Part shown: piece by piece, positions 1,383 to 30,500 of the stretch
Layout of the letters: every line of letters starts with the position of its first letter
Position numbering within the stretch: the stretch's first letter is position 1
DNA from: Cyanophora paradoxa CCMP329
Lineage: Eukaryota; Plantae; Glaucophyta
NCBI GenBank assembly: GCA_004431415.1
Contig: QPMI01000658.1
Span: 62,001-126,000 of the forward strand
Direction: 5' to 3'
Length of the DNA: 64,000 nt
The notes under the pieces: generated by a model
The model's input: the letters and a program-made list of their open reading frames with translations, nothing else
Told to the model about the DNA's origin: nothing
The model's database searches: none
Made by a program: the position numbers and the translations under genes

Positions 1383-1629
1383 GGTCGGTTTGCAGTGAAC
1401 CTCACAGTTAAAACCCCGCATCGCATTAATAGACCTCATCGATAATCAAAGCAATTTACGATCGATTCCTTACCAATGCCCGATAGGAATCGTAAATTGC
1501 TCACTTTTCATCAACCCTCGATCAAAAACCATGACCCCCTACCTATGCCTCTCATATATATCTATCGACTTTATTGATAAATCACATTTTCTCTCTTTAC
1601 CCATGACCCCCTCCCTGTGGTTTTACTGT
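1383..1629 (+). repeat. Left terminal inverted repeat (247 bp)
   Basis: Reverse complement of 30254-30500 with one mismatch seen (1564). Starts GGTCGGTTTGCAGTGAAC. Confidence 0.97.
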
Positions 1630-1663
1630 GAAAATGAATGAAATCAATTATATTTGAATTCAA

Positions 1664-2784
1664 TTACAACTGGTGACGCGGATCCGGACCCTCAGAAAGG
1701 GGAGAGTGGTCATAAACGTAAGGGATAATGTAATTCTCCGCATCTTCTTCAGTAATCGATAGAGCTTTGAAACGGTCACCATCGATTTCAACCTTGATGA
1801 AGAAAGAAGGATACGGGAAGGTCTTCTGCTTTGCCCAGCTCACCTCGTAGATCGCCACACCTCTTTTCTGTGTATTGCTCAGTCGTAAATCGCGTTAAAA
1901 CTGAATATGAAGCTTACCATATTATCCTCACGCTCGAAGATGGGCAGAGGCTTGAGAAGGAGATGGCAGTTCTTCTTGAAATTCTTGAATGCCTCGACAC
2001 ACTGCAAACGATCAGATTGGGCTATCACAGTGAAATGACAGCTTACCGATGTCACACTTGACCAGTTGATTGCGTCCTTCAACCCTTGATCCGTGCTTCG
2101 GAAGATGGTCATGAGAAAATTGATGACCACGAGCTGTTCCAGCTTCGCCCAGATCGTGATCTGCAGATCACGTCAATCGCTAGCATCGCGATTGCAGTGA
2201 GAGACTCACCTTATCGCCCTTTAACCCCTTCGGCTTCGGCTCCGTTTTCGGCTCCGTTTTCGGCTTCGCAGGCGCCGGCTGCGATCGAAAACGTTAATTA
2301 CATCGATTTGCGCATGCGCAGCAACGTGCCTCGGAAGGCCCAGCCTGGGGCTGCGGGGGATCGGGAACCGCAGGGGCAGCGGGGGCAGCGCCATCACTCC
2401 CGCGGTTGCTCGCGCGCTTCGCCTTCCGCTTCTCGGCCTTCTTCATATTCTGCTTCACCTTCTTGATCGTCTGTTCGAAACGCAATCGTGAGTAAATTTT
2501 CGACGCGCAATAAATCAAGCGCAACGAACCAGCTGATCCAGCCGGTCAATTACATCTTCGAGCTGACTCTCCGTCATTTCGAGCCGCTGCTGCTGCTCCG
2601 TGATCTGCTCTCTCTGCCGCTCGATCTGCTGCTGCTGCTCGCGATAACGACGGCGGAGTTCGGCGACATCGAGATCCTCAGCCGTCTGCTCCATAGGTGA
2701 GTCCTCGGACTCCTGGCTATCCGCTGGAGGCGCGGGGGCCTTCGGGGGCGCCTTCGTGGGCGCCTTCCCCTTGCGGTCGCTCAT
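1664..2784 (-). CDS. Spliced 6-exon gene, 288-aa hypothetical protein (N-terminal coiled coil, K/P-rich linker, globular C-terminus)
   Basis: Exons 2784-2530, 2470-2330, 2278-2210, 2160-2047, 2001-1918 and 1867-1664. All five introns are phase 0, 45-59 nt long, with donors GTTCGT, GCACGT, GTGAGT, GTAAGC, GTAAGC and CAG acceptors. Splicing joins the four small ORF-track fragments into one uninterrupted ORF. Confidence 0.85.
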
Positions 2785-3423
2785 CTTTGAGTGCGTGCAG
2801 CTAGGCGATCGAAGGCAGTTAGATACTAGTATCGAGCGCTAGAGCTAATTCGCGATCGCGTTAACGACTAAGAGCCATGCGCCGTCTCTGCCTAAGAGCC
2901 ATCGCCGTCTCGAATTTTTTCATGCTGCAGAACTCATTTTAAATTTGATTGGTCGCCAGTGACGAAATTAAAAGTTGTGATAGTTTAATCAATGTGAGGT
3001 TATAACTTTGACATGTATATATGCATGTAGTAAATTAATTTAACATAGAGTAACCTTTTTCAGTTGAATTCTTTGGAAGAATTAATTATGACTCACCAGT
3101 GGCTCATCGATGATGATTTCTTCATAAATAATCATCAATGACTCACCGACGGCTCACCGGTGAATCATCGATAGATAGCGCTGTACCCAGCAAAGGCTGT
3201 CGTACCCAACCGCGCAGCAGCCCTGCCGCCGAAGAAGCATTTCACGCCCGAGGAGAAGCGCCGGGCAAACACAGAGGCTGCTGCTCGATACCGGCAGCGA
3301 TTGCGCGAGCAAGCTGAACTTGGGCGCCTGTTTCTCTCGGGGGCGCTGACCTCGGACCCACCATCGCCGGCCGCAGCCCAGCCCGTTCAGTTCAGCTCTC
3401 CAGTAGCTACGCAATCGCGCAAC
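2785..3423. promoter_or_regulatory. Divergent promoter region between the two spliced genes
   Basis: AT-rich core. Duplicated ATGACTCACC..GGCTCA units contain TGACTCA at 3089-3095 and 3139-3145; ATTGG (CCAAT) near 2948; duplicated CTAAGAGCCAT(G)CGCCGTCTC at 2868-2911. Confidence 0.5.
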
Positions 3424-4301
3424 ATGGCCGCCCGCGCCCCAGCCCCGCAGTCAGACGTCGACATGGCGACGGCGTCGCTCGCTGGTGTCCAGCTCTCGCC
3501 CGCAGCGGCGGCCTCTTCTGCGCAGCGGAACAGGTGCAATTAACGATTTCCTACACGCCTATGCAGAGCGCGCCCCGAGATTCCCAGCCTGCGTCGACTT
3601 AGCTAACTTCGCGCCCGCGCAGTGCTGCGGACCTGACCACCAAGGAGCAGCTCGTCGTGGCTTACGAAGCGTGCGCCCTGCATCCTCTCTGCGCTCTCTC
3701 TGCGCCCGCGCCGCGCCCCCCGACCCCGCAGAGCAGCCAGATCGCGGAAATGCAGGCCAAGTTTTTCAGCATGGAGGCGAAGCTGCAGGCTAAGGATGAG
3801 GAACTCGCCGCCGTCGGCTCGCAGCTCAACCGTGCCAAGAGCAACAAGGAGAGCTACGAAGCGCTGGCCAAGCAAACCACGATGATGGTGAGCCTCCGCC
3901 CTTTTCCCAAGCTGCCCCCTGAGCTTTGTGCAGAATTTGGGCATCAAGGAGGCGGTGGCGGAGCTGGCGAAGCGCATCCCCGACATCGTCGACAAGCAGG
4001 ACGCGGTGCGCGCTGGCTCTCGCCCCCCTTTAAGCCCCTCAAGGCCTGCTGCAGCTGCTGACCCCCTCCCTTGCCTTAGACCAATGCTACTGCTGCTGGG
4101 GAGGGGGAGACCAACGTCTACCCCCCGATCACCGAGTTGATCGTGCTGACGGAGTTCTGCAAGCTGAAGGGCCTGGACGCCCTCAAGAAGGCAGTGGGGC
4201 TTAACAAGCCCGAGAATTGGGCAGTTGTGATCGCGAAGCTCAAGGAAGCTCGCGAGAAAGCTAGGCTCTGGTACCGCCAGTACAGCGATAAGACCATCTA
4301 A
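3424..4301 (+). CDS. Spliced 5-exon gene, 200-aa coiled-coil hypothetical protein
   Basis: Exons 3424-3533, 3623-3670, 3737-3887, 3934-4005 and 4080-4301 (603 nt). GT-AG introns of 89, 66, 46 and 74 nt with branch-like GCTAAC/GCTGAC. The spliced ORF is continuous (...DLTTKEQLVVAYEA|QIAEMQAK...TTMM|NLGIK...KQDA|TNATAAG...YSDKTI*). Confidence 0.8.
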
Positions 4302-4345
4302 ATATATAAAAATGCATACCCAGTTCGTTTTTTTTGACTTTTCGT

Positions 4346-4933
4346 TTAGATCTCGATAGCTAGCAGTTCAAGACTTGTCATGTTTTCGAGTATCTCATAA
4401 TAAAGTTTAGCCTGATTCTCACTCAATTCGTCCTCGCATTCAAGATCTGCAAACACTTCGCTCTCGGTTCCAATCATACCGGACTCGTCCTCTAGCCTGA
4501 ATCGCTCGAGCTTGAAGCTGGCCTCATCGAATACATACTGATCCCCATCTTCGAGTTGAACTACGATCCTATTCTGCATGTGTTTGGGGAACATATCGCC
4601 GCGAGTCCACACGTATATATTCTCGATTCGTTTAGCGAACCCCTGTTTGCAGATCGCTTCGACGATCCACTGCAATTCATCCTCAGAGAGTTCAAACTCC
4701 CGTGTCTCATCTTCTAGATCAATCACATCCCCCCACGATTCAATATCGAGTGTCCGCAGCCTCTCGTAATCGATGGTCGAAGCATCGACCTTGAATACAT
4801 CCTCCGTGCAACACCATACGTCACTCTCGCATCGCCAGCAGCCGAAAGAGCAGACCGAGCAGCCGATCGAGTTCTCGGACCCGCAGTCCGAGCCACACTC
4901 AGAGCCAGAGTAGTCAGAGTCGTCCGAAGCCAT
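4346..4933 (-). CDS. Hypothetical acidic protein with Cys-rich N-terminus (195 aa)
   Basis: Intact ATG ORF with a CSVC..CWRC..CC cluster; no family recognised. Confidence 0.7.
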   Translation of the reverse strand: MASDDSDYSGSECGSDCGSENSIGCSVCSFGCWRCESDVWCCTEDVFKVDASTIDYERLRTLDIESWGDVIDLEDETREFELSEDELQWIVEAICKQGFAKRIENIYVWTRGDMFPKHMQNRIVVQLEDGDQYVFDEASFKLERFRLEDESGMIGTESEVFADLECEDELSENQAKLYYEILENMTSLELLAIEI

Positions 4934-5330
4934 TGCGTTCCGATCCGATTGAGTGGCCGAGAGAGTTTGACTCGAATCAAATTTTCGCCCCCCTGTATGG
5001 CGCGGCTCTACGAAAATTATCGAGGCGGTCGTTTACTTGGCGTTTACCCGGTCGGTACGTACCCGGATCCCGGTTCCGGCCCGAATCAAATTTTTGACCC
5101 CCACTATGGGGTGGGTCTACAAATATTTTCTAGCGGGCTTGCCATACGGCTTGACACGCGGCTTGAACAGCGGCTAGGCCAAGCCGTCAAAAAGCTTTGT
5201 CACAAAATTATCGAAATTATCTCAGGCCCGGCCTGGCCCGGGCCGGCTGGCAGTCGGTGCCAGAGCTTGGTTTTGGCCCGGTGGTTTTCAATTGGCTACA
5301 TGTCGCCAATCAGAATTAACCGAGTCTCCA

Positions 5331-5452
5331 ACCGTCAACCGTAAAAAAAGTCAAAACGCGGACCGTCAACCGTTTAAAAAAAGTCAAGTCGTGGACCGTC
5401 AACATTCGACTTCGAGTTGAACGACATGAACGTTTCGACTTCGAGCTAAACG
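5331..5452. repeat. Short tandem repeats in the viral non-coding region
   Basis: ACCGTCAACCGT(T)AAAAAAAGTCAA..CG.GG about 2.3 times, then TTCGACTTCGAG twice. Confidence 0.75.
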
Positions 5453-5503
5453 AAATGAATAAAAAACGAAAAACAAAAAAATAAAAAATAAAAATGAAAA
5501 TTT

Positions 5504-5836
5504 TCACTCCTTTTTCCTAGCGCCGGCCCCCACTTGTACTTTATCGTAGGTCAGTGTTAATGGGTTATCAATACCCGATACGAACCATAGCTTATGATCA
5601 GGATCCCACTTGGCTCCACCCTTCTTAGCCTCCTCGCGATCCTCGAACGGGATTTTCAAATAAATTTTTTTATTTTTGCGCATTAATTCCGAAACGGCCA
5701 CGGTACTATAGGTAGATAGAAGCTTATGTTCCGGCTCAGTTACATACCAGCATTTATGCTTCATATCCCATTTAGCCCCAAGGGCTTTAGCTTCATCTTT
5801 TTGTTCAAAAGGGACCTCAATATAGATTTTCTCCAT
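5504..5836 (-). CDS. Tandem DUF5710-like domain protein (110 aa)
   Basis: Two copies of the motif: IYIEVPFEQKDEAKALGAKWD...WYV and IYLKIPFEDREEAKKGGAKWD...WFV. Confidence 0.8.
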   Translation of the reverse strand: MEKIYIEVPFEQKDEAKALGAKWDMKHKCWYVTEPEHKLLSTYSTVAVSELMRKNKKIYLKIPFEDREEAKKGGAKWDPDHKLWFVSGIDNPLTLTYDKVQVGAGARKKE

Positions 5837-5862
5837 TTCCTACTATACGAATATATAAAATT

Positions 5863-7230
5863 TTACCTGGTTCGGATCCTAGTACTAGCCCTTATAGCTG
5901 GAGCCTTATCATAGGATGCTACAGCCTCTGCCCCACCGGCTAATTTCTCGGTTCCGGCTACTCTTAGATTCGCTAGCTCCCTTGAAACCCTCTTTGTTCT
6001 CTGGACCCTATCCTCGATCAAGCTGCCCTTTGGGACTGATTCGGCCGGATCTATGCCCTCTCTGTGGATCTGTCTAATTGCTGCGGCCTCCTGCCTCACT
6101 GTATCCACTGTACTTGCGGAAGGCTCAACGATTGCTTCAACTTCCGATATGATCTGCAGCTCATGAGGCTTGAAGATTCGATTCAAAGGTACACCCTGGG
6201 CATCTACGACCTGGATTCCATTCCCGGCCCTTCCTGCAATCTTGTAGACCTCTCGACTGTATCTCTGAGTGGCCCCCTTGTCAAACTTAGACCTAGGCAG
6301 CAAGACTCGAACGAACAGGCCGGGCTTGAATTTCTCGAAGATATCATCAACAATTGCTTTCTTTTTCGATAAAATGAAACTGCGAATGCGAGCCATATCC
6401 TCTAACCTAACATCTATTGGTCGCATACCTATAGTCCTATTAACACTGGAATTATAATTCAGAACAAAGTCCTCTAGCTTATCCATAAACTTGACTGTGT
6501 TGAAAGCGATGCAGTAGTTATTGATCATCGTTTTGAGGGTCAAATGGAATCGATTCATGATGCCTAAACTCGTGTGATCCCCAGCCTGTTTAAACCTATG
6601 CTCGATTCCAAACTCCTGGATCACTGCCTGGAACTCTTTCGCTTTAAACTCGGAACCCAAATCAGTCTCTAACACCCTCATTGGAGCGGGAAGCTCACCC
6701 AATACCTCTCTAAATGCAGTCGCAACACTGACTCCCTCTTTATTCTTTAATTTCTTAGCGTAAGCCCTCCTGCTCGTGATCTCAATAAGAGTGAGTACCG
6801 CAATGTACCCCGCATTGTACTTTCCGTAAGATAAATAGAATATCAGATCGGCCTGGTAGGTCCAGGGTGGAGCTGTGATTGGAATGAATGTGGACTGCGA
6901 TGCTGGGGGTGGCTTCTTGTTAATCTGCATAAACTCTTGCTTTTCTGCAACCTCTTTGACCTCGTTATAAGTAACACTCGGATCCTCTTTCTTCAGCTCC
7001 TGATAGATCGTATGGGGATGCTTGTAACCTGTTTTAGGATCGTACATTCGCCTAACTATTTTATTCGAAGCCGGACTCACGGTTTTAAAAGGGACATCCC
7101 CTACTACATTTACCTTTGCTTCTCTTTTACTAATTCTGCCTTCTACTCTCTCTGTATCTGGGATCGGAATGGGGAGCAGGGTCGTTTCGGTCTCATCCCC
7201 AGCCCCTCGCCTCACTATTTTCGATGCCAT
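5863..7230 (-). CDS. Retroviral-type (rve) integrase of the Polinton/virophage kind
   Basis: YQADL, ITSRRAY, LETDLGSEF, GIMNRFHLTLK, NYNSSVNRTIGMRP and an SH3-like tail (FKPGLFVR...YSREVYKI). First ATG at 7230; the ORF-track start at 7245 is TTG. Confidence 0.92.
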   Translation of the reverse strand: MASKIVRRGAGDETETTLLPIPIPDTERVEGRISKREAKVNVVGDVPFKTVSPASNKIVRRMYDPKTGYKHPHTIYQELKKEDPSVTYNEVKEVAEKQEFMQINKKPPPASQSTFIPITAPPWTYQADLIFYLSYGKYNAGYIAVLTLIEITSRRAYAKKLKNKEGVSVATAFREVLGELPAPMRVLETDLGSEFKAKEFQAVIQEFGIEHRFKQAGDHTSLGIMNRFHLTLKTMINNYCIAFNTVKFMDKLEDFVLNYNSSVNRTIGMRPIDVRLEDMARIRSFILSKKKAIVDDIFEKFKPGLFVRVLLPRSKFDKGATQRYSREVYKIAGRAGNGIQVVDAQGVPLNRIFKPHELQIISEVEAIVEPSASTVDTVRQEAAAIRQIHREGIDPAESVPKGSLIEDRVQRTKRVSRELANLRVAGTEKLAGGAEAVASYDKAPAIRASTRIRTR

Positions 7231-7248
7231 CCTATAACTATACAAATT

Positions 7249-10200
7249 CTATTTTTTGCTGCTGTTGCATCCTTGATGAGCCAGCTTGCAGTTCGACTTG
7301 ATGTGAGCCTCTTTATTATTAATCCTATCAACAGTAAGCCTGTACCTTAGATCCTTTGCCTGAAGGGAAAGGGGTTCGGTACACAGAGAGCAGATTCGCT
7401 TCTGCTCCTTGAGCTGCTCAATGATCCACTCGGGTGTAATATAATCATCATCATTATAATCTCGACCCGCTTTCTGATCCTGGCACTTGTAAGCCCGAAC
7501 CTTGGCCTTCAGATGCTCGAAGATCTCGGATTTAGCCTCGAACTTGTGGAGCTTGGTGTAAATGAGAATCTCGCTCAAATCTCGGTTGCGAGTCAGAGCA
7601 GTCCAGAACCACTCAGGAGTAACATGGCAGAACGAGGCCTCACAAACGACAATGCCCGAATCGTAGGTGAGTCCTTGAACACTGTGGCATGTTCCAGCAT
7701 AGGGTAGGTTGAACTTTTCCAACAGAGCAGTGGGGAGAGAGAACTGGGTCCCATCAAACACATCCTCCAAAGTGACCTGGTTCCGATTGATATCGACTAT
7801 GGTATAACTGTAATTAGTGAAAGCCGCTACTTTCTCATCTTTTTTACCTCGGGTCACACAGATATATTCACGACAAACGATTTCGATTCCTTTGAAAAAA
7901 TTGATTCCGTTCACAAGGATCCCCTCGGTTTCGGGGTATATACGTTTATGCATGGTTCGGTTGTACAGGTAAGCCATCTCGTTTCTATAGCATATAGCCC
8001 TGTAGGAATCAGGAATTTCGTTTAGATCAGTTGCAGTTCTGAATCCGTATTTATTTACTATTTCTGTAGGAGCAAGTCCGTTCTCAAAGAGATCGACCTT
8101 GATTGCTTTCAGCTTCTCTCGATCCTCAGGCTTGCGATGCCTCTTGTTGATCATCAGCTGCAGTGTGTTGGGGAAGATGCTTGAGATAGCATCGCTGTAA
8201 TATTGTTTGGGGTCAGCCACAGCAAGAGCATCATTTATGGGAGCGTTTTGGTGGGGGTCTCCATTGCAGTAGAATTTCTTATCCGAATACTTGTTTATGA
8301 ATTTTTTGATCTTTGCAAGGTCCTTTACTTTATAGGCATAGACCTCATCGAATACTACATGGGAAAAGCCTTCCATAAACTCATTGACCTGTGAAGCCGA
8401 TAGGGCCTCTTCACAGGTTTGCTCATTTGAGACTCGCAGACCCAGAACACTGTACAGGGTGGCCACCTCAATGCGGCTTGCAGCTTCGGGCTTCCCCAAT
8501 CTGATGCCCATTTCTTTCAGAGAGCATCGGAACTCGGCCGCTTGTTTGTTGTAGGGGCAAACTATGAGTCCGTTGATGTCATTTTTTAGCAGGTAGACCA
8601 TCAATCCGGTCGACTTTCCGGCTCCTGGAAGCATTCCAAGGGTATTGACATGATTGAACTCATTGTAAACCTTGGTATAAGCGTCCGAATCAAATTCGTT
8701 TCGAAGGCAGAAGGAATTGATATTCGAAAGGGGATCCTCAATTTTAATAGGCTTCGGGAGGGTCCGAATGCGAATGGGGTTCATTGGGGCTTCTTGTTCG
8801 GAATATAGGAGAAGCGACCAATGTTGGCAAAGCTATTACGATCAAAGGGCTTTGAGCTATACCTTCCTTTGATATACAGGCAATCAGTGTGGATTCCCAC
8901 GACCTCGTAACCTTTGCTTTTGAGTTCCTTGTACTTGTCATACATTTCGCTGCGAACTCGATCGTACATTGCGAACTGGATCGGAAGGAACCCGTTAATG
9001 AGATCCTTTTGAGAATCAGTTCTCACATAATAGATGTGGCCATCGAAATCCGAAAGGTTCTTGACCAGAGTATCAGTTTTCGCACCAAAGGTGAATACTT
9101 CCACCATTCCGCCCACCTGCTGGGCATAGATATCAGCCTCGGACTTTTTGCAGAACAACCTGGTCTTGGATCGCTTATCGAGTCGCTTTCCTAGCAGACC
9201 AATCACTTCTACGAGAGTAGCCTTTTTCTCGCGAGGATTCAGGTCGCTTGACATTATTTTCTGGATCAGCCTTTTTGAGGGGTTGCTTACGAAAAATGAT
9301 GGGCGGTTGTAGCCTGTAATAGTCACGAGATCCTTGATGTCCTCCCAGTGACGCTTCAGAGTGTACCCTGTGATCAAGTTCGAGTAGGATGCAGCCTTAT
9401 AACGATCGAGCAGGATCTGAATTCCTGGATCGCAGATGCGGGATTTGTATCCTACTGGCTCATCATCAATATCCTCTTCGTATGTATCCACTCCTTGCAT
9501 GTAGGTTCCAGTATCGAACTGCTGCACATCAATCACATAGAAGGTATCCTCCTCGATTGGGTGACCATCATAGGGGCGGATACCATCGAAAATATTGAAT
9601 ACTGGAAGCTTCTCGATCTTGCTAATAACAGCTGGGTAGCATTTGCACATATCCACTGCAGTGTATTTAGTTCCTGGCTTCGGCTTAATGAAATAGCCAT
9701 TCAGAGCAGAGCGATTGTAATTAATAAGGGCTGTTCGGAAGCCCTCCTCGTACTGTGAAATTGTGTCGGTGTTAATCAGGGCTTCCTTGAATTCTTGACG
9801 AATGGATTGGACCTTTTTGTAGTAAGCCTCAGTCTCGAACTCACACTGTACCATGTGATCAGAAACCGAGGGATTAAATACGGAAAAGAATATTCCACTC
9901 GCTTTGAAGATCAGGGTTTTGATCTGTCCCCTTTCATTCCGAGCTTTGGTTCGTATTGAAGGCGATCCAAGAAAGTGAACAGAAGCTCATCCATGGACCC
10001 AGTGTAAACGATTCGGACTGTAGCTTTCTCCTTATCAGCTTTCAATCCCATGGTCGCAATCTTGAGCAGATCAGCAGGTGTGTGGGCGAACATATCGTAT
10101 TGTTTGGTCTCTGTGATTTGATAGGATGAGTTCAGCGAAGCTTCGGTTGGGTTTTCGGTTTCCAGGTCCATTTTCTTGAAATTCTTCTCGAGGGCTTTGA

Positions 10201-12047: not shown

Positions 12048-12049
12048 TG

Positions 12050-19469: not shown

Positions 19470-19486
19470 ACATAATATTATTAGAT

Positions 19487-22400
19487 ATGTCGTTTTTGAA
19501 TCCACGACCGGATATTCCGCAGGCTAAAGTTTCAGTCCCTGAGAAAGAGCCGATTGATCTGGTAAACCCAGAGATCAGAGGGTCGTTGAGAATTGAATTC
19601 AATGGGGATCGGGAGGATCCCATTAGTGGAACACCCAGCAGACCGGCCGCATTGCAGCTGGTAAATGTTGAGCCAGGAGATAATAAATTGGGAATCGATT
19701 TTCTGCTCGATGATAACGAGCGGAATAGGGTTGCAAGCATCCAAGCAACTCGCCAGATACCCAAAACAGTTAAATACAATCGAAGGAACATACCCAAATC
19801 CTTTGATAGGGGTCGATTGAATTTCTTTGTCCAGGATGAAACGGGTCACCAGAATGCAGCCCTTCGAATTTCGGATAATAGCACCCTAATTGCTGGTGTA
19901 TCAAATCGAAAGACAAAGGTTGAAATAGCCCACGATCTTTCAGCGAGCAATGTTTTTACGAGCAACCTGGAAGTGAACACAATCAAGGCAGGAACATTAT
20001 CGACAAGCAACCTTTTGACTTCTAATATTTCAGTAAATAGATTCGTAATCAAGGATGGCAGCTATGTTCCACCAATTGCAGAGGGGACCTTCACTGCAGA
20101 TTCAACAAAGCCCATGCTGGAGATTTACCAGGATGGAGAATTGGTGGGAGCGATTGGCTCAAATGCTCCAGTGGTTCGATCGATCGCCCTGGATAAAACC
20201 ACCATATCGATGGCAGAGGAGATCCCAGTATTCAACACAGAAAAGCAAGCGCTTCGAACTGGGCATTTGCATATCACAAGGGAGAACATAAACAATCTGC
20301 TGGGAGAGGATATTGTGAAAGAGTTTTTGAACTTCAAGCTAGCCAAAAATACGAAAGATACGAGCCAGGACACCACCCTCACTGCCCACAGCACCGAGAT
20401 TGCAGCCCTGCAATCCGAGATCAATACTTTATTCGCTGCAGATGGAGTTCTTGCGATCACATTGGCAAGCATTTTGGCAAAGAGGAACATTTACCCAGCA
20501 ACCGATAATAAGTATAGAATTGGTCTTTCCAATCTCAGGTGGATGGAAGTAAATGCAAACAAAGCAAATTTTAATAGCCTGACTCTCATCAACAATGCAG
20601 ATTCAAAAGCTACAATTACTTTCGATGGGAAGATTGGAACCCAAACCTATACGAACACAAAGAGTTTTACGAAGACTGAAACTGCCACCACTCAAATCCT
20701 CGGTATCTACATGGTAGCTTACCTTCCCCTCCAACCTATTCCTTTACATGGGCTGAATTTGGTATTACGGATCCAGCCGAGCTTCCAACTGCCACGATAT
20801 TCGATTTGACAGATTACTTTGATCAAACAAACACTGTTATCAACGATCAGGCATACATAACGAATGTTACAATGACAGGATTTGATGTGACTTTCAACAT
20901 GCCCATGCCTGAAATGGTAACCCCAATCACTAAAGTAGCAAATTCTGCCACATTCAAATTTAATGTAACTGCTGTACATAATGTTCCAATATACGGAGAA
21001 CCCTACATCAAAATAAATAGCAATATCCGGGCAGCAAGTATCTTCCCCCAAGATCAGAGCCGCACTCTAGGATCAGCATCCAGCAACTGGCAGAGTGTGT
21101 ACTCCAGCAATGTGAACACAAACAAAATCCTTATGACCAAAACCAACCTATCCACTATCAGCTCTGTAAACAGTTTTTTGGCGGATACAACTCCAAGCAT
21201 CTCATACCACAATCTGAAAGGTTCAAGCAATTTATCCCAAACAGGATCGAAGCAATTTGGTTATGCTGATCTACAGAGCTATAATATGAACAATCAATAC
21301 AGAGTGAATGGCACCCCTCCCCATGTGTATAATATTACTTTTGCCACCCCATTCCTATCAGCCCCCACAGTGACTTTACAGGATACAAATACATACTTCA
21401 AAGCAACAATTGTGAATGGAATAACCTATCCTGCTACAACAACCACATCCCCTTTCAGTGTGACTAATGTGACAAATACAGGATTCACATTGGTTGGCAC
21501 AACCACACTTCACCAAGACATAAATTTGTACCCTGCAGGTTTGTATTTCAATCAAGGCACCCCTCCTTACACAATCGGCTGGACAGCAGTGGGCAATGTA
21601 GCTCAATACACTCCAGAGGATCGCCTTCGGATCACTTATCCAGTTGACACAGATGCTCTCTTTGTCAAAACAATCAATGGGGCAGTCTTTGGGCAATCCG
21701 GTGGAAACACAGTGTTCACCACAAATATCACCAACACCAGCAATTATTTGACCTTTAATCCTGATAATCTCCGCACCCAGAACCTTGTGGTGGGCAGTAC
21801 TTTTGCTCAGAGAGAACAGACAATTACCGTAAAAGTTCCTTACCACTACAAATTAGAGAATCCAGTGAAGTATGGCTACCTTTATGACAAGAAATGGGCT
21901 GCGTTTGTACCTTACCAATCAGAGAGTGTTAACATGTCGTACCCAAGGGTGGACATTGATGCCAATCAATTTATGAATGTGAACTGGAAGGACTTTTTCA
22001 CCCTCCAGTCCTCCACAGATGGCCTGATGATTTATTACGATTACAAAAACAACACATTTGACAGCTTCTTTAATTCTTTCACGTTTAATGGATCCACAGG
22101 AACATTAGCAACCAAAAATCAAAATAGGTATATCCAAACAGACTTTGAATGGACACTGACATTTACATTGCGAGATAGGTACACACCCAATACCACTCTG
22201 CCCCTGGGAATGTGGAGCAGCTGCAATATTTATGTACAGAACACATTATCCGCCAATAAATTCTACGAGGGTGGATTCGCAAATGAAGGAACAAGACTGC
22301 TGTCTCGAAATGGTCTCCTACAGAGCTTTTCAGCAACCCCACTGCCCAGCTTGGTGAACAACAGCACATATGACACCACTTGCAATGTTTGGGTATGCCA

Positions 22401-22995
22401 TGGGATTGCCCATCCACCTGTGTCTACAGCCCTTTTCAATTACCTGCAGTCCAAGTATGGCACAATATCAGGAAGCGCAACCAGAGGGGCAGCAGATGCA
22501 CCTATTGTCTTTAAAAGCGGTTACACCCAGCCGTTCACTGCTGAAGGTGGCACAGGTGGACCCACTGACCCAACCAACCCAAAAGATGAACCCGATCCAA
22601 CAGACACCCCAACCAATCCAGATAATCCACCCTCAAAAGAAACACCTAAAACGACTGACCAACCAACCGGGGGTCCAGATATAGGTCGCATAGTTGGTAT
22701 CGTTATAGGCTCGCTAGCTGGTGGGGCTGGAGCTTTGTATGCGGTCTATATATTTTTGAGATTCGTGATTGCTGCAGGGTCAGCATTTGCAACAACCTCG
22801 GCAACTGTCACTGAAACAGCAGCTGGGGCTGTTGCTGTCCAAGCTACTGGGGCTGAGGGTACCACAGGCTCAATTATACGAAATGGCAGAGGACCCAAAA
22901 ACAAGGCACCATCAGGGGATGCACAGTTCATGAAAGAGATTGCGAGAAGAGAAGGTAGAGCAAGTAAGGATGAAACAATTCCAAATAATTTATAG
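19487..22995 (+). CDS. Fibre-like structural protein, about 1169 aa after a 1-nt frameshift correction near 20695, with C-terminal P/T-rich stalk and hydrophobic helix
   Basis: Phage-fibre motifs IYPATDNKYRIGLSNLRW and IFPQDQSRTLGSASSNWQSVY; gp53/H-lectin-like ITFATPFLSAPTV..VTNTGFTL..WTAVG; TM-like IVGIVIGSLAGGAGALYAVYIFL at 22690-22758. Adding one A joins the two ORFs into 3510 nt. Confidence 0.75.
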
Positions 22996-23010
22996 AAGCT
23001 TAATTATAAA

Positions 23011-26000
23011 ATGACCTCCATTACAACTCCGATTGCCATTGACACATATTTAGTAGAGGATCCTGCTATTCCATCCCACAATAACCAGCTGCTGCTCAAG
23101 TATGTTCCCCATATAGGAGGTCACTCAAATCTCTGGAATGATGCTTATCATGAGTTTGGGCATTTATATGACATTGATCAAGGGACAGGCTACATAGATG
23201 CTCTGGATGGTACAGTCTTTCGAACCTTGAACTCTAACGCAGAGGGTGGCTTTGCATTCCAATTCTGCTCGAATGTGTATATTCACCCAACTGATTACAT
23301 GCAGAATGTGTATGCTGGAAAAACAGCTGCCTATATATCCTCTGAAGCAGCAGAGTTCGATGTTCCTTTGGTTGCCAATACAATTGGAGCCTCAAGTATT
23401 TATTTGAGAAAGGAAGCTGTAGCAACGGAGCCTTGGACCTCAAATGTTATTAGAGGGCTGACCAATTCATTTGCTGACTCAAATGTTGCATTAGGCTGGC
23501 TGGCAGATTTTACCACTTCCAATGTCACAAAGGGTTGGCTGGCAGGCTACCTGCCATTGACAGGAGGAACTATAAGCGGAAACCTTAATATTACAGAGAA
23601 ACTAATGATGGGTTCCACATATCTTATGACAGAACCCATTGACTTCAATGTGTTTGACCCACTGAGCATTAGCGAATGCCTTCTTTACTTTAATGCCAGT
23701 AAGGAAACAAGGACAAAAACCAATAATGCCACCATTTGGCTTATGGACAACTTTGCGAAAGGGAACTATGTGGGTGGTTATAACAATTTCATTAATTACC
23801 TTATTGGAATTTCATCGTCTTTCAAATATTTAGCAACTGTGAACGAAATCAACAGCAAACCTGCATATGGATTTGAGCCAAATGGTGGTTGGCCGCATCA
23901 GTATATGGTACGTCCCGTTACTGGTTCATATGCGACCATAGATTTCACACAAGGAGTTACCATGTTATTTGTGGCAACAGGCTCTGGCGCCATTCCAAGT
24001 GGAACACATGAAGGCATCCTTCGATTCACTTCTCTTGACAATAATGAAACATGGACAGTCAGCAGACTGTATAGTATCTCCCCTACACCGAGCTATTACC
24101 TATATGTCACTAAGAATGATGGTACCTATGCCAGCATCAGCTCAGACTCAACAGTAAAGGTACGAATAACATTAGAGGAATGGACCAAATATACTCTATA
24201 TGATATCACCATCACTTCTACAACAGTCTCTGTTGGTGTTAATGGTGTCACAAGGGGAACTTTCACTGTCGCAGCAAATTCAAGGCTACCAAGTAATCAA
24301 GTAGAGTACATAGATGTGGGAACTGGTGATTCATCTTACTTTGCTTTCAGTCAAATGCTTTTCTATGCAAAAGCTTTGAGCCAGACAGACCTACAGAATT
24401 TAAGGTGGTACCTTCAGCTCTTCTACGGATTTCCTGTGAATATTCAAACACTTCCTAAAGACAATAGTAAACTTGTATTAAATGCATCGCGATTGAGAGT
24501 GACAGGATCCATTCAAGCAGCAAGTGTATCAGTTCCAACAGTAGGGGCAAAGACTGAGAAGACATTGGATCAAATAATTTCGCCAACCTACGAGGAATAT
24601 TACCAAGTAACAGGAGAAACAGATATTCCATCCCAGATCCCGAATTGTTTCTGGAAATGGAAGCCTCCCACCAACTTGGCAACAACAGGCACAACCATAT
24701 ACAATCAAGTTTCTTCTACACTGAGCAGCCTCTCGTCACCTGATTTATCCATTAATACAACCGTGGATATTCTTGGGGAAGCTTATGTTAGTGGCACTAA
24801 TATTTCCTACACAACTCCATTAACTACTGTGGAAGTTTCAGCAGGATTGACAGTGTTTGTTGTAGCGAGACCCACGTTCCACTTTGGATTTTGGGGAATC
24901 AAAGACGCAGACCCCATTACTCCAACAAGCTACAAGATTGGGATTCTGGCATATGATTCAGAGAGCCAAATGATGGATATTGGATTACATGAAAATCTTT
25001 TCAATGGAAATACACGTGGCTCTGGTACTGCTATTTTAACAGTCTCCACAGGATTACAGGCATGGAGCTACTATGATGTTACTGTTTCCAGCACTAATTT
25101 GGTTATAGGCATTCATGGGACAGATGTGGGAAGTTTTGAAGGCGACTACCTTCCTCCCAGTGGGAACCTTAGGTACGTCACCCCACCCTATTGGGGACAT
25201 CATGCAGAAACAATTGTTTTCAAAAGGGCATTATCAGCAGAAGAGAAGCAGACAGTCAGGTATCACATTCAGCAAAAGTATGGATTTCTTATCACTCAGC
25301 CACCCTTGGTGAGAGAGTACCTTTACCTTCCTTCATCCAATGTTGTCATTGAAAATCTCACTGTGAACTCAAACGTTTCGCTTCCCAATATTCCCACAAG
25401 CAATATAGTACTGGACTGGCTGGCTCCCAAGGCCGATTTAATTAGTGTTGAAGGTCTAATTGCCCCTCTCACATCATCAAACATAGTTCAGGGATGGCTT
25501 GCTCCCAAGGCTGATTTAAGTACTGTTGAAGGTCTTATTGCCCCTCTTACATCATCAAACACAGTTCAGGGGTGGCTTGTTCCGAAGGCAGATACAGCTA
25601 CTGTCAACACTTTGATAGCTCCACTCACATCATCAAACACAGTTCAGGGATGGCTTGCTCCCAAGGCTGATTTAAGTACTGTTGAAGGTCTTATTGCCCC
25701 TCTTACATCATCAAACACAGTTCAGGGGTGGCTTGCTCCCAAGGCTGATACAGCTACTGTGAATACTTTAATAGCTCCACTCACATCATCAAATGTAGTT
25801 CAGGGGTGGATTGCTCCCAAGGCTGATACAGCAACTGTCAATACTTTAATAGCTCCACTGACATCATCTAATGTGGTACAAGGCTGGTTGTCTGGCAAAG
25901 CAAACACCACAACTGTAAATACTCAAATAGCCCCTCTTACAGCTTCCAATGTTGTTCAAGGCTGGTTGGCTCCAAAGGCAGATACAACAACTGTCCAGAC

Positions 26001-29000
26001 TTGGTTAGCTTCCAAAGCTAACACATCTGCTCTTTCATCATATTTACCTCTAACAGGGGGCAGCATATCTGGCAACCTAATACTTTCAAGTAACATTTCA
26101 ACCCCTCTTATCACAATGGAAAAGGCAAAATTGCAGTGGATATATAAAACACTCTCACAAAAAACGCCTGACCCAATTGCAATTTCCGGGTGTATTTTCC
26201 ATTGGTATCCTGAGGAAACGGTAAATAGTCGTGTCTATACTCTCACAAACAGAGCAACAGGAGTTGATAGCATTGGAAATCTTACATGTGATGGAAGTAG
26301 GCCACACTATGTTGGAGAGAGCAGCTCCCAAATCCAAGGGAAGAAGTATATTTATTCAACAGGATGGGGAGGAACAGATAGGACATTACAAGCCCAAGTG
26401 AACAAAACCCTTTCTCCAACTTTCTTCCAAAACGGATTGAGTGTATTTATAGTCATGCGGATTGCCAATACTGGCGCAGATACAAACTATGCCCATCGCC
26501 ATTTCTATGCTACTAATGGTTTCTATGAAGATTTCCAGATTGGTCAGAATACTCCTACAAAAATTGGTGTAATCTGGAATTACGCGATAAATGGTTCTGT
26601 TTTGACATCCTGTTCATCTACATACAATACTTGGTGTATCATTGACCATGTGGCTACTGCTTCTGGAATAGTCTCGGCCATCAATGGACAAGAATATTCA
26701 CAAAGTAGTGGCAGTTGCCTTCCACTTTATAATATTACGAAACTCAGTGTACACCTTTTAGCTGCTGGATATACTGTGGATGCTTCGCATTATGTCGCAG
26801 AGGTAGCATGGTATAATAGGGCGCTCACAATTGATGAGAAAAAAGCAATAAGGCAAACTTTGACCCAAAAGTATGGTATCGCTATCACCAATCCAGCTCC
26901 AGTTTACAATGTTCAAGAATACTTATCAGTAGGTGGTGTTGATGTTCAAATTGACAATTTACAGGTCAACTCAAATGCAGTTATTCCAAACCACACAACC
27001 TCAAATGTAGTTCAAGGCTGGTTAGCCCCAAAGGCAGATTTAGCAGCAGTGAATACTTTAATTGCTCCTTTGACAGCCTCTAATGTAGTTCAAGGCTGGT
27101 TGGCCCCAAAGGCAGATTTAGCAGCAGTGAATACTTTGATAGCTCCTTTGACAGCCTCTAATGTAGTTCAAGGCTGGTTGGCTCCCAAGGCAGATACAGT
27201 AGCAGTTAATGATTTAATAGCTCCTTTGACAACCTCTAATGTAGTTCAAGGCTGGTTGGCTCCCAAGGCCGATATGTCTACTGTTCAAACTCTAATTGAG
27301 CCTTTGCCCAGTAGTAATGTAGTCCAAAGCTGGATAGCAGCAGTAGACACCACAGGCAGTATTCAGAATCTTACATCTTCTAATGTTGTTCAAGGGTGGC
27401 TGGGAGGAACTATAAATGCTTCTAATCTTCAAATAGGTGGGACAACAATACCAAAAGGTTATGATTTTGACCAATTAGATGTTGTATCAACAGATCGAAG
27501 CGCTAATAATTGGACTGTTACAGGATGGACAGGAAGAACAGGACAAACAGGATGCTACACAACACCACAAAATGATGAAGATTGCAGTGGTTGTTGGATG
27601 AGATGGGCTGTTCCCGCAGGTATGAAGTCGTTTTATATTCAACACATGCCATGGTATAATTGTAGATACTTTGATATCTATGGTCAGACAGTCAATAACA
27701 AACAGCACTTTCTAAAACGTGTGAACGCCTATCAAGGAATCCAGTCTGTGAATGAGGATGGAACACATAACAGTATATTATTCATCTCAATCAATTGTGA
27801 ATTCTACAAGTATATTTACGTCCAAGGAAAGAAAGGTCGCATTCATCTTACAGGTGTTTTCGGTTGGAGTAGACAGAGAGCAACAGATAATGAGATTGGA
27901 ATGGTAAGTTGGGACAATGTGTTTAGCAAACCGGATTTTGCAGCAACTTATGCAACAAAAGCAGAAGCGACCTATACATTAGGTAGTTTATTGACAGTGA
28001 ATTCTGTGGACTGGCACAAATCCACAGATAATATTCCAAGGTTTTGGCTTGGCAGTGGTAATACGACATACATACGGGGTTATGGAAATGGTGACGGTGT
28101 TTCTATTGAATTTAGAAACTCATCAGATACAGCCATTTTAAAATCCTATAATAATGGGAACCTTTGGGTAAATAATACTTTGTCTGTCCCTACTGTGAGC
28201 GCAACCACTGTAAGTGGAACAACTGTTACTGGAACAACAATTAATGCTACCACAAATCTTCAAATAAATGGAAACGCTGTTCCAAAGCTACACTCAAATG
28301 ATGCATATGTGGCGGGTAACTCGCCATATAATTATTCAGGAAGTTGGACTTTTGGAACAGGATCGGCTTGGGAACCCTATTTTAATTATGGTGGTTATGC
28401 TCATAACAGCGAAATTGATGACCAAACATCTACAGCTTGGATTGAATACAATATCCCTGATGGACTACATACAGGCACAGCATTTTTGACTCATCTACCT
28501 TGGAGTGGAACACGGATATTCGAAATTTGGGGGATCAATCGACAAGGAAACGCAATCTTCATTACAACCGTTAACAACTGGTTCCCATATGCCGGATCAG
28601 CAGATGGGAACCATAGTGGTGTGAATAATGTCCCCATTTTTCTTGGAAATCGATTTGTCAGAATTCGGATTCAGGCAAAAATCGGAAGAATTCACATTAT
28701 GGGTATAAGTTTCATGAAAATTTGGGTTGGGCATAGTTATGGTGGCCACACTGGATACATTGCTTGGGATAATATCTACCGAAAGCCAGACTTTGGGAAT
28801 TATACGAGCTTTGATGTGGTCTCAGGTTGGAATAGCGCAACTGTTTATTTGGTCGGAAGTTGGGGAACAGCTTGGAAGCCCACAAGTGACAACCCTGTGG
28901 AAGGGTGTTACAGCAATAATGTAGATGATGAAACTTCTGGCAACTACTTCCAAATGGAAGTTCCAAGTGGAATGCGAACCTGCCATGTTCAGTATATGTC

Positions 29001-29799
29001 TTGGACTAATGGAAGATACTTTGATATTGGAGGATACCGAAATGGACGTTGGCATCATATTATGCGTGTGAACTGTTACCAAAACGTTTCTAACAGTTAC
29101 GACAGCAACTGGCACGATGGCTTGGCTTGGACATCGTTCTTCTGCACAAACTTCTCACATGTAAGGTTTGTTGCCACAAAAGGTCGTTGTCACATTGGTA
29201 TGCTTGGCTGGACAAAAGAAGCTGGGAGAACAGCACCAGCAAACGGTATGATTAGTTGGGACAATGTATTTAGCAAACCAAACATCATAACAAGTCTACC
29301 AGCAACAGCTACATGGACAGAGGATATGTGGTTAATATCAGGAAGTAGTCAACGAGGTCGTTTCTATTTTCAAAGTACTGGAACAACTTACATGAGAGGA
29401 CATGGTGATACACCGATTGTGTTTAGAAATGAATACGATACCACAATAGCTTATTTCTATCACAGTGGGTGGGCGCAGATTACGGGTTATCTGTCAGAAG
29501 GAAGTGATAGAAGATACAAAACAGATATTAAGAAGATAACAGGCGCTCTTCCAGCATTAGAAAGATTAGACGGAGTTTCATTTAAAAGAATTGCTGATGA
29601 CAAAAAGAAGGTATGTTTAGGATTAATAGCACAAGATGTTCAGAAAGTATTCCCAGAATTGGTTTCAGAAGGGGTAGATGGTTATTTAGGTGTTCAGTAC
29701 ACAGGATTGGTCCCTGTATTAATTGAAGCTGTTAAAGAATTATCCCAGAAATGCAAGAGTTTGCAAGATCAAATCGATCAATTAAAAAATGTGACATGA
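23011..29799 (+). CDS. Giant fibre protein (2262 aa) with LamG/ConA-like domains, 26-aa repeats and a C-terminal peptidase S74 intramolecular chaperone
   Basis: YLPLTGG.ISGNL twice; SDRRYKTDI..GLIAQDVQKVFPELV..YTGLVPVLIEAVKEL from 29503; three domains ending ..ALS/T..; three domains ending WDN(V/I)(F/Y).KP. Confidence 0.9.
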   Translation: MTSITTPIAIDTYLVEDPAIPSHNNQLLLKYVPHIGGHSNLWNDAYHEFGHLYDIDQGTGYIDALDGTVFRTLNSNAEGGFAFQFCSNVYIHPTDYMQNVYAGKTAAYISSEAAEFDVPLVANTIGASSIYLRKEAVATEPWTSNVIRGLTNSFADSNVALGWLADFTTSNVTKGWLAGYLPLTGGTISGNLNITEKLMMGSTYLMTEPIDFNVFDPLSISECLLYFNASKETRTKTNNATIWLMDNFAKGNYVGGYNNFINYLIGISSSFKYLATVNEINSKPAYGFEPNGGWPHQYMVRPVTGSYATIDFTQGVTMLFVATGSGAIPSGTHEGILRFTSLDNNETWTVSRLYSISPTPSYYLYVTKNDGTYASISSDSTVKVRITLEEWTKYTLYDITITSTTVSVGVNGVTRGTFTVAANSRLPSNQVEYIDVGTGDSSYFAFSQMLFYAKALSQTDLQNLRWYLQLFYGFPVNIQTLPKDNSKLVLNASRLRVTGSIQAASVSVPTVGAKTEKTLDQIISPTYEEYYQVTGETDIPSQIPNCFWKWKPPTNLATTGTTIYNQVSSTLSSLSSPDLSINTTVDILGEAYVSGTNISYTTPLTTVEVSAGLTVFVVARPTFHFGFWGIKDADPITPTSYKIGILAYDSESQMMDIGLHENLFNGNTRGSGTAILTVSTGLQAWSYYDVTVSSTNLVIGIHGTDVGSFEGDYLPPSGNLRYVTPPYWGHHAETIVFKRALSAEEKQTVRYHIQQKYGFLITQPPLVREYLYLPSSNVVIENLTVNSNVSLPNIPTSNIVLDWLAPKADLISVEGLIAPLTSSNIVQGWLAPKADLSTVEGLIAPLTSSNTVQGWLVPKADTATVNTLIAPLTSSNTVQGWLAPKADLSTVEGLIAPLTSSNTVQGWLAPKADTATVNTLIAPLTSSNVVQGWIAPKADTATVNTLIAPLTSSNVVQGWLSGKANTTTVNTQIAPLTASNVVQGWLAPKADTTTVQTWLASKANTSALSSYLPLTGGSISGNLILSSNISTPLITMEKAKLQWIYKTLSQKTPDPIAISGCIFHWYPEETVNSRVYTLTNRATGVDSIGNLTCDGSRPHYVGESSSQIQGKKYIYSTGWGGTDRTLQAQVNKTLSPTFFQNGLSVFIVMRIANTGADTNYAHRHFYATNGFYEDFQIGQNTPTKIGVIWNYAINGSVLTSCSSTYNTWCIIDHVATASGIVSAINGQEYSQSSGSCLPLYNITKLSVHLLAAGYTVDASHYVAEVAWYNRALTIDEKKAIRQTLTQKYGIAITNPAPVYNVQEYLSVGGVDVQIDNLQVNSNAVIPNHTTSNVVQGWLAPKADLAAVNTLIAPLTASNVVQGWLAPKADLAAVNTLIAPLTASNVVQGWLAPKADTVAVNDLIAPLTTSNVVQGWLAPKADMSTVQTLIEPLPSSNVVQSWIAAVDTTGSIQNLTSSNVVQGWLGGTINASNLQIGGTTIPKGYDFDQLDVVSTDRSANNWTVTGWTGRTGQTGCYTTPQNDEDCSGCWMRWAVPAGMKSFYIQHMPWYNCRYFDIYGQTVNNKQHFLKRVNAYQGIQSVNEDGTHNSILFISINCEFYKYIYVQGKKGRIHLTGVFGWSRQRATDNEIGMVSWDNVFSKPDFAATYATKAEATYTLGSLLTVNSVDWHKSTDNIPRFWLGSGNTTYIRGYGNGDGVSIEFRNSSDTAILKSYNNGNLWVNNTLSVPTVSATTVSGTTVTGTTINATTNLQINGNAVPKLHSNDAYVAGNSPYNYSGSWTFGTGSAWEPYFNYGGYAHNSEIDDQTSTAWIEYNIPDGLHTGTAFLTHLPWSGTRIFEIWGINRQGNAIFITTVNNWFPYAGSADGNHSGVNNVPIFLGNRFVRIRIQAKIGRIHIMGISFMKIWVGHSYGGHTGYIAWDNIYRKPDFGNYTSFDVVSGWNSATVYLVGSWGTAWKPTSDNPVEGCYSNNVDDETSGNYFQMEVPSGMRTCHVQYMSWTNGRYFDIGGYRNGRWHHIMRVNCYQNVSNSYDSNWHDGLAWTSFFCTNFSHVRFVATKGRCHIGMLGWTKEAGRTAPANGMISWDNVFSKPNIITSLPATATWTEDMWLISGSSQRGRFYFQSTGTTYMRGHGDTPIVFRNEYDTTIAYFYHSGWAQITGYLSEGSDRRYKTDIKKITGALPALERLDGVSFKRIADDKKKVCLGLIAQDVQKVFPELVSEGVDGYLGVQYTGLVPVLIEAVKELSQKCKSLQDQIDQLKNVT
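25396..26020 (+). repeat. Coding tandem array 1, 78-bp units (TSSNxVQGWLAPKADxxxVxxLIAPL)
   Basis: About 8 units visible in DNA and protein. Confidence 0.9.
26998..27405 (+). repeat. Coding tandem array 2, 78-bp units
   Basis: About 5 units of the same family. Confidence 0.9.
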
Positions 29800-29805
29800 T
29801 AGTAA

Positions 29806-30117
29806 ATGGCGACCTATCCACTTGGTGGAACCCCAATGACAGGTGAACCTGTTTCACTGGCATTCGACTCAGCTACACTTGTAACTGCTTTGCAAACTAT
29901 TGAGAAATCCGTTCAGCAATTAAATAAGCTGAACTCAGTAGTTCATGATTATAAATACCTATTAATTAATGCAATTTCCCAATCTGCAACAGGTGATCCA
30001 GTTACAAAATATGAAGATCTTGATACCAAATACAAAAGTATGACATCGAATCTGTATGGATTAATGGAGGTTTACCAAGGATTGGGATCTAATCTAATTA
30101 CAGTGGCTAATGTATGA
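29806..30117 (+). CDS. Hypothetical helical protein (103 aa)
   Basis: ATG ORF 6 bp after the fibre gene. Confidence 0.7.
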   Translation: MATYPLGGTPMTGEPVSLAFDSATLVTALQTIEKSVQQLNKLNSVVHDYKYLLINAISQSATGDPVTKYEDLDTKYKSMTSNLYGLMEVYQGLGSNLITVANV

Positions 30118-30119
30118 AT

Positions 30120-30230
30120 AAAGGGAATTCCCCTTTTTTCTTACGATAGATCTACCGTAAGAATATCGAATACTGTTCGATATCCCCAAGGTAGATCTAT
30201 CGTTAAAAAAAGATATAGTATATCTTTTTT
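30120..30230 (+). terminator. Cluster of palindromes/hairpins after the last viral gene
   Basis: GGGAATTCCC; TTCTTACG..CGTAAGAA; ATATCGAA..TTCGATAT; AAAAAAGATATA-G-TATATCTTTTTT; 14-bp inverted pair 30143-30156/30190-30203. Confidence 0.55.
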
Positions 30231-30253
30231 CCGTATAGATACAATAGAATCTT

Positions 30254-30500
30254 ACAGTAAAACCACAGGGAGGGGGTCATGGGTAAAGAGAGAAAATGTG
30301 ATTTATCAATAAAGTCGAAAGATATATATGAGAGGCATAGGTAGGGGGTCATGGTTTTTGATCGAGGGTTGATGAAAAGTGAGCAATTTACGATTCCTAT
30401 CGGGCATTGGTAAGGAATCGATCGTAAATTGCTTTGATTATCGATGAGGTCTATTAATGCGATGCGGGGTTTTAACTGTGAGGTTCACTGCAAACCGACC
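30254..30500 (-). repeat. Right terminal inverted repeat (247 bp)
   Basis: Reverse complement of 1383-1629. Confidence 0.97.

Follow-up and report, generated by a model that had tools for sequence, protein, structure and literature searches.

A well-preserved endogenous polinton-like virus from a catalogued but unplaced family in the glaucophyte Cyanophora paradoxa

Polinton-like viruses (PLVs) are already on record from the glaucophyte Cyanophora paradoxa. Table S2 of Bellas 2023 (PMC10120064) lists C. paradoxa major capsid protein (MCP) types in rows 23, 24, 100, 102, 106 and 107, and its Table S4 counts 366 MCPs in two clusters labelled 'new' (21 and 29 by column count), which carry no group name there. 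Table S6 of Bulzu 2025 (PMC12220804) tabulates 156 glaucophyte PLVs, with A32 counted in 139, rve in 85, superfamily 1 (SF1) helicases in 34, HNH in 40, S74 in 37, lipases in 89 and S-adenosylmethionine decarboxylase (AdoMet_dc) in 66, and with all nine protease columns at 0 across the 156; AdoMet_dc is also present in three cryptophyte rows (PMC12220804). In the portion available to us, the same source describes S74 fibres as ubiquitous in glaucophyte PLVs and patatin-discoidin fusions as present, and genes resembling those of adintoviruses were noted in contigs of C. paradoxa by Starrett 2021. Here we analysed a 64,000-nucleotide stretch of the C. paradoxa CCMP329 genome (contig QPMI01000658.1, positions 62,001 to 126,000 of the forward strand; hereafter the window), in which an element spans positions 1383-30500 from one terminal inverted repeat (TIR) to the other.

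We consider it very likely that this element is an integrated PLV of the catalogued C. paradoxa family, with a likely linear, protein-primed mode of replication, a predicted fibre-bearing icosahedral capsid and likely rve-mediated insertion. Compared by eye, 75 of the first 80 residues of its MCP are identical to row 100 of Bellas 2023 Table S2; the protein falls within the 25% identity clusters given there for C. paradoxa, and its sole named homologue in our searches, C. paradoxa protein P0003 (37% identity), is row 106 of the same table. The gene set of the element (A32, rve, SF1/HNH, lipase, AdoMet_dc and S74, with no protease) agrees with Bulzu 2025 Table S6. On these entries the element shows no family-level difference from the endogenous PLVs of C. 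paradoxa (Bellas 2023; Bulzu 2025), having a near-identical MCP and the same genes. A reading made earlier from the letters of this DNA (the sequence-only reading) had assigned the element to a poorly described lineage, unless its MCP were to cluster in a described family with the same gene set. The C. paradoxa entries of Bellas 2023 and Bulzu 2025, as tabulated, largely place it in such a family, so capsid type and gene set are both catalogued; what survives of the claim is that, outside subscription journals, which our coverage did not include, we found no publication naming or placing the glaucophyte PLV group. The element is thus a well-preserved member of a catalogued yet unplaced PLV family, and its capsid type is likewise unplaced. 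Of the sequence-only reading, an endogenous PLV with a divergent capsid and no maturation protease is supported, as is recent purifying selection (see below).

The replication module is of the type known from Tlr1 of Tetrahymena and of PLVs carrying a Tlr1-like helicase. As described in the sections available, Tlr1 combines rve, MCP, minor capsid protein (mCP), ATPase and a Tlr1-like helicase with no protease (PMC5499653; 10.1101/2024.03.18.585575), and for the helicase both polymerase activity and an active viral OTU (vOTU) domain have been predicted (Krupovic 2024, 10.1101/2024.03.18.585575). The element has the same TIRs, rve, vOTU-palm-SF1-nuclease replicase, MCP, mCP (candidates here) and ATPase and also has no protease; it differs in its C-terminal nuclease, which is GIY-YIG in Tlr1 and HNH here, as in other PLVs, and in giving no match to Tlr6F. 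Its replicase lies at 7249..11389 on the minus strand, as three open reading frames (ORFs) in the window. A scan with motif patterns for OTU, PolB, SF1 and HNH found, behind an N-terminal region, OTU-like Cys/His motifs, followed in order by PolB palm motifs, an SF1 helicase and HNH, and PHROGs profiles matched a Dda-like helicase (E 2e-14) and a C-terminal endonuclease VII/HNH (E 1.5e-10). PolB motifs A and C are present, the first aspartate of motif C being substituted, and no convincing ExoI motif was seen ahead of the palm. Judged from its sequence, this protein corresponds to what Krupovic 2016 (PMC5499653) calls the Tlr1-like helicase. The element had been credited with a fusion of family B DNA polymerase of the protein-primed type (pPolB) and helicase: the SF1 helicase with HNH is borne out by profiles, whereas the polymerase label is motif-based.

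A Pfam search of 20 ORFs, at Pfam's own cut-offs, returned DUF5710, rve, Pox_A32, patatin, AdoMet_dc, Peptidase_S74 and Viral_helicase1. The rve (DDE) integrase proposed earlier (5863..7230, minus strand; PF00665, 40.6 bits) has catalytic-type motifs, and the A32-like packaging ATPase (13473..14330, minus strand; PF04665, 37.7 bits) has Walker A, Walker B and RGRH motifs; Atlas clusters with Pox_A32 neighbour the latter at 0.98. The lipase and the metabolic enzyme recognized earlier likewise proved to be a patatin-like phospholipase of 491 amino acids with a C-terminal beta domain (17537..19012, minus strand; PF01734, 81.3 bits; GTSTG and DG motifs) and an S-adenosylmethionine decarboxylase (19053..19469, plus strand, the ORF opening at 18954; PF02675, 45.3 bits; TIGR03330, E 1e-12; ESH motif). 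An adenain/Ulp1 maturation protease, which the sequence-only reading had not recognized either, gave no profile match in the 20 ORFs, four small ones of which have no family label, and no adenain-like motif in six frames. Since Tlr1 is described without a protease, the 'missing adenain' is an ordinary PLV condition. No RNA polymerase or transcription factor matched among the element ORFs, so the element would rely on host or helper transcription.

From what is described for these protein families (Krupovic 2016; Krupovic 2024; Bulzu 2025), we infer a cycle in which the OTU-like domain would free a terminal protein and the exonuclease-less palm, together with the SF1 helicase, would copy the genome starting at the TIR ends. 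The A32 ATPase would then fill a capsid of MCP and pentons with no maturation protease, S74-matured fibres with lectin-like modules could attach to the host surface, patatin might help membrane entry, AdoMet decarboxylase may supply polyamine synthesis, and the rve integrase would insert the genome. Copies would diversify through fibre-module swaps and the re-pairing of replication and capsid modules, as contig joints and depth suggest.

The MCP (441 amino acids; 14381..15706, minus strand) is unusually divergent. It had no family match in Pfam, and neither it nor its six relatives matched Capsid_N or Capsid_NCLDV at E up to 10. These six were the only homologues among 1.84 billion representatives; a word-index search found one among 7,995 candidates scored, and a seven-sequence profile found two. 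A model built from eight sequences (pLDDT 68, pTM 0.75) is a double jelly roll and so confirms, at the level of predicted fold, the MCP that had been claimed. Bellas 2023 lists P0003 and closer proteins as capsids of endogenous viral elements (EVEs). Foldseek gave TM scores of 0.61-0.64 to the MCPs of Singapore grouper iridovirus and PBCV-1 and 0.43-0.47 to mavirus. VIA comparison of the model with the PBCV-1 capsid chain gave Z 24.5 (root-mean-square deviation 3.9 over 334), followed by faustovirus (23.6), PRD1 (18.2), mavirus (13.6) and Sputnik (13.3). The top BFVD match of the model was the unnamed entry G8DDE2 (TM 0.65), which could be a PLV protein. Two pentons had also been claimed; they stand as candidates for minor capsid proteins, the first at 15893..16675 (minus strand, ORF opening at 16762) and the second at 16692..17540 (plus strand). 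They resemble each other weakly (E 0.006), their DUF5901 match is sub-threshold (12.3 bits against a cut-off of 26.4), and the first contains a putative penton motif.

Such fold values raise the question of a relationship to giant viruses. It is possible, if tentative, that the glaucophyte family forms part of a Nucleocytoviricota-related continuum (Mriyavirus, Zora VC102, VC218, Zephyr or the Tlr1/OmPLV grade) and itself acquired a Tlr1-type replicon, a reading which is compatible with an integrated C. paradoxa PLV and concerns its placement. The MCP fold is nearer to the MCPs of nucleocytoplasmic large DNA viruses (NCLDVs; Z 18-24.5) than to those of virophages (Z 13.3-13.6), and Atlas neighbours at 0.98 are viral clusters with Capsid_N in 12-30% of members, a weak signal whose recognition value is below the tool's threshold. 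In the Bulzu table only two of the 156 glaucophyte PLVs match the PLV MCP profile, against at least 76% in 17 of the 18 rows for other hosts; 15 of the 156, but none in those 18 rows, match the penton profile of NCLDVs (PMC12220804). A published tree places Tlr1 and OmPLV between PLVs and NCLDVs (PMC12721341), and Zora and VC218 often have rve, and Zephyr may have polB-SF1 (10.64898/2026.06.19.733378, as far as available). Against this placement, an NCLDV-type best match is also found in 20 of the 23 non-Cyanophora EVE MCP rows with a named match in Bellas 2023 (PMC10120064; counted from 30 of about 109 rows, with five Cyanophora rows and two rows without a named match excluded), and that paper itself states that NCLDV best matches are common for PLV capsids. 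The MCP and its six relatives, moreover, lack Capsid_N and Capsid_NCLDV matches even at the permissive limit given above, and the solved structures matched by the model held no PLV capsid for comparison. VLTF2, VLTF3 and a RuvC-like resolvase, characters of Mriyaviricetes and Nucleocytoviricota (PMC10962738), had no Pfam match in the 20 ORFs, though divergent forms might escape, and no HUH-like endonuclease motif was found in the element. The glaucophyte ATPases match the PLV profile in 107 cases and the NCLDV profile in one (PMC12220804). The proposal of the sequence-only reading that an NCLDV capsid module had been joined to a Polinton replicon is therefore not established: the replicon is of Tlr1/PLV type rather than Polinton type, NCLDV best matches are usual for PLV capsids, and the ATPases of the group match the PLV profile far more often than the NCLDV one.

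The other described groups can be set beside the element on the same characters. Zora VC102, VC218, VC134 and Zephyr (10.64898/2026.06.19.733378) have in common with it a size of 20-30 kb, rve in many and polB-SF1 and a lipase in some, but the element gives no HUH or VLTF3 signal and its lipase is a separate 491-amino-acid ORF, not part of a 7.5-kb ORF; the main text of that source, which defines NCLDV-like PLV groups, is silent on Cyanophora and glaucophytes in the parts available. OmPLV of Oxyrrhis marina is, like the element, endogenous and about 25 kb, with a helicase-polymerase fusion and a claimed NCLDV affinity; it differs in that its helicase lies on the N-terminal side of a full pPolB and in having a tyrosine recombinase and a resolvase but no recognized mCP (PMC12721341, as far as available). 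Mriyaviricetes have an HUH endonuclease, genomes of 35-45 kb and no integrase (PMC10962738, in the part available), in contrast to 25-29 kb, rve and no HUH motif here. Maverick/Polintons (Polintoviricetes, including Gosseviruses) share TIRs, rve, A32 and a double jelly-roll MCP with the element, which differs in having no cysteine maturation protease or target-site duplication (TSD) and an apparently exonuclease-less, helicase-fused polymerase. Virophaviricetes, with their Sputnik/mavirus-type MCP and protease, are unlike it (Z 13.3-13.6 against 24.5; no protease here).

We would entertain, with less than even confidence, the broader idea that glaucophyte PLVs are an unnamed deep lineage with capsid and pentons nearer to giant viruses than those of any classified PLV, present in their hundreds in a cultured alga and shuffling replication modules and receptor-binding fibre cassettes between copies. 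If so, C. paradoxa would be a laboratory model for small giant-virus relatives and ongoing module exchange, and if trees were to place the family near Nucleocytoviricota, it would provide a cultured host for that part of the PLV continuum; hosts of Zephyr viruses are stated as unknown in the available text of 10.64898/2026.06.19.733378. Claims of NCLDV affinity have already been made for other endogenous PLVs, as in the account of OmPLV (PMC12721341).

Phage-like fibres, the remaining structural claim made for the element, were confirmed. A modular fibre of 2,262 amino acids (23011..29799, plus strand) ends in a Peptidase_S74 chaperone (PF13884, 55.1 bits), with tail-fibre PHROGs matching mostly at this end, and also contains three related LamG-like modules (Laminin_G_3 weakly matched, E 8e-4), two 26-amino-acid repeat arrays and three related modules of a second type. 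Upstream lies a long, presumed fibre-like structural gene (19487..22995, plus strand; two ORFs in the window; no match in Pfam, PHROGs or NCBIfam). Residues 1-835 of the fibre have a contig depth like that of the structural genes, whereas 25926-27054, 27981-28638 and 28609-29529 have single-copy depth and no differences, and joints in other copies skip or replace them. Fibre modules are therefore likely exchanged as cassettes between copies; a repeat artefact may account in part for the joint that lies between the two arrays. Positions 27273-28006 and 29475-29841 (fibre sub-modules and S74 end) reach a depth of 1,900-3,000 in run X13 against about 100 for single copy, and are thus common to many other elements in the genome.

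Depth was about three to four times the single-copy level on the structural genes and about six times on the DUF5710-rve-replicase block, the longest contig pieces listed being used and contig depth being, by the tool's own warning, no true copy number. The ratio between replication block and structural genes was 1.44-1.84 in all four DNA runs, a hint that the replication block also occurs in other elements that do not have this capsid module. Two runs presumed to be RNA gave no contig on 20300-31300, a result that has no bearing on expression. The re-pairing of replication and capsid modules has been proposed in general by Barth et al. (10.64898/2026.10.13.758929), where, in the text available, one C. 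paradoxa contig is cited as a multi-replicase case. In the material seen of Bellas 2023 and Bulzu 2025 we found no description of copy-to-copy fibre modules or of the 3.9-kb insertion described below. Within a single genome, the model of mosaicism in 10.64898/2026.10.13.758929 could be tested on these fibre modules and on the replication module, which appears to be shared.

The element had been called intact. In the window the replicase is split in three and the first fibre-like gene in two; contigs from the runs differ from it by one letter in length at the three ORF junctions (4/4 DNA runs for the replicase, 2/2 for the first fibre-like gene) and at three further places, five of these six differences falling in runs of four like bases. 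The breaks are thus probably assembly errors and the family open-framed; contigs merge copies and so cannot show this copy alone, where a real break is possible. This copy was compared with the majority contigs at 75 coding differences (a subset of 80 displayed from 365 listed, five falling outside the ORF list used); 59 of these are silent, the expected share being 23-28%, and no stop codon arises from any of them. By gene, the silent share is 22/29 in the fibre, 10/11 in the first fibre-like gene and 11/16 in a penton candidate. This silent-site bias indicates that copies diverged under purifying selection.

The same data bear on the idea that we are looking at a transposon family that can do without its capsid, or at relics in decay, with virion genes that have ceased to matter. 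The ORF breaks, the insertion beside the left TIR and the absence of a TSD could be read in this way, as could a core ratio of observed to expected CpG of 0.63, methylation and silencing of viral genes having been reported for this host (PMC12344493). We nevertheless regard both readings as unlikely: the silent-site bias reaches structural genes (fibre, first fibre-like gene and penton candidate), the 6.8-kb fibre ORF is open, and stop-creating changes are missing from the 75 sites. For 5502-30500, CpG observed/expected came to 0.63 overall (fibre genes 0.41, replication block 0.85), and host DNA gave 1.14. CpG depletion may record host methylation and differing module histories; viral genes of C. 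paradoxa are methylated and mostly silent according to the part available of Sarre 2025 (PMC12344493).

The two TIRs (1383..1629 and 30254..30500, 247 bp each, by repeat comparison) match in inverted orientation at 246 of 247 positions, i.e. they are near-identical as claimed. GC content is about 44% in the element and about 65% in the host DNA on its right side. The left and right flanks match, in the same order, a single uninterrupted copy of a host repeat (37600-38200), some additional letters being present at the site, so the virus sits within a host repeat. The right junction is spanned by a 416-bp contig with 0 differences (run X13). A joint of 966 to 1383, considered as a second insertion site, was rejected: it is the right-junction contig placed via the inverted host repeat (length and depth identical). 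In contigs of all four DNA runs the left TIR continues directly at about 5526, in the DUF5710 gene, and 1636-5501 is skipped; this segment (1636..5501, no strand assigned; 3,866 bp, 53% GC, A-rich at its right end and bordered by a 7-bp direct repeat) is therefore an insertion specific to this copy. The unit typical of the family measures about 25.2 kb and has a coding density of 93%. The 29 kb given earlier for the element is accordingly the TIR-to-TIR span here, not the family unit. The insertion has a host-like composition (CpG observed/expected 1.17 against 0.63 in the element core) and no informative Pfam match, and may be a piece of cargo that was retroposed or captured. Recent integration, also claimed, is favoured by the near-identical TIRs and weakened by the absent TSD and the 3.9-kb insertion. 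An assembly that had fused several copies into a 29-kb chimera would explain the absent TSD and the odd left end, no listed contig spanning the element and the left junction being unbridged in the listed pieces, but is improbable given the ordered match of the flanks to an uninterrupted host repeat, and given that a contig crosses the right junction with 0 differences and that the insertion and the fibre modules are present in all DNA runs compared.

Several points weigh against an integrated PLV of the catalogued family. No TSD was found beside either TIR end, and the 5-6-bp duplication of the Polinton kind is not present at the element ends; in the available part of Bulzu 2025 (PMC12220804), TSDs are often absent from PLVs, being retained in 22-34% for cryptophytes. 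Among the contigs listed, none bridges the left junction. The polymerase had no profile match (PF03175 included) and, like the OTU and penton labels, which have no profile or fold support, is named from motifs; a putative discoidin label for the C-terminal part of the patatin was not confirmed by any F5/8 match. The window's broken frames, the merging of copies in contigs, and the limits given with the depth and substitution counts belong here too.

The remaining ORFs of the element comprise a DUF5710 protein with two repeats (5504..5836, minus strand; PF18974, 108.4 bits), a basic protein of 131 amino acids (11582..11977, minus strand; weak PHROG match only, E 0.002) that is possibly DNA-binding, as its composition suggests, and a 174-amino-acid protein downstream of the ATPase gene (12946..13470, minus strand) with no informative match in Pfam, PHROGs or NCBIfam. 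A 169-amino-acid protein (12050..12559, plus strand) matched nothing in the same three collections; it may be a degenerate PD-(D/E)XK nuclease-like protein. The last ORF encodes 103 amino acids (29806..30117, plus strand) with no informative match in Pfam or NCBIfam. Searches of PDB sequences with element proteins gave no significant match, tblastn of ATPase and helicase against a phage collection gave none, and a word-index search found one ATPase homologue among 676 candidates scored. Relatives were not found in IMG/VR scans or in one JGI metagenome; a second JGI metagenome gave one matching contig of 1.3 kb (L001).

A 36-bp inverted repeat with a 5-nucleotide loop (30135-30211) follows the last ORF, ahead of the right TIR, and is possibly a terminator or a replication signal. 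The insertion at 1636-5501 contains short coiled-coil ORFs with a spliced look (2515-2838, minus strand; 3175-4301, plus strand), an acidic ORF of 195 amino acids (4346-4933) and short tandem repeats (5331-5459) before its A-rich end. The host repeat family flanking the virus (378-1370 and 30580-30950; uninterrupted copy at 37600-38200) has internal inverted repeats. Farther to the right, 31500-37300 is a minus-strand region resembling a non-long terminal repeat (non-LTR) retrotransposon, with a strong AT skew and ORFs in several frames that, judged by motifs, would encode reverse transcriptase and an RNase H-like protein. Identical 283-bp direct repeats, 16.4 kb apart, delimit 40906-57559; the ORFs between them are presumably gag-like, reverse transcriptase-RNase H (51440-53362) and integrase (54374-56134), again judged by motifs. 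We read this region as an LTR retrotransposon that is unusually long and very young and carries an additional long ORF at 46553-50812.

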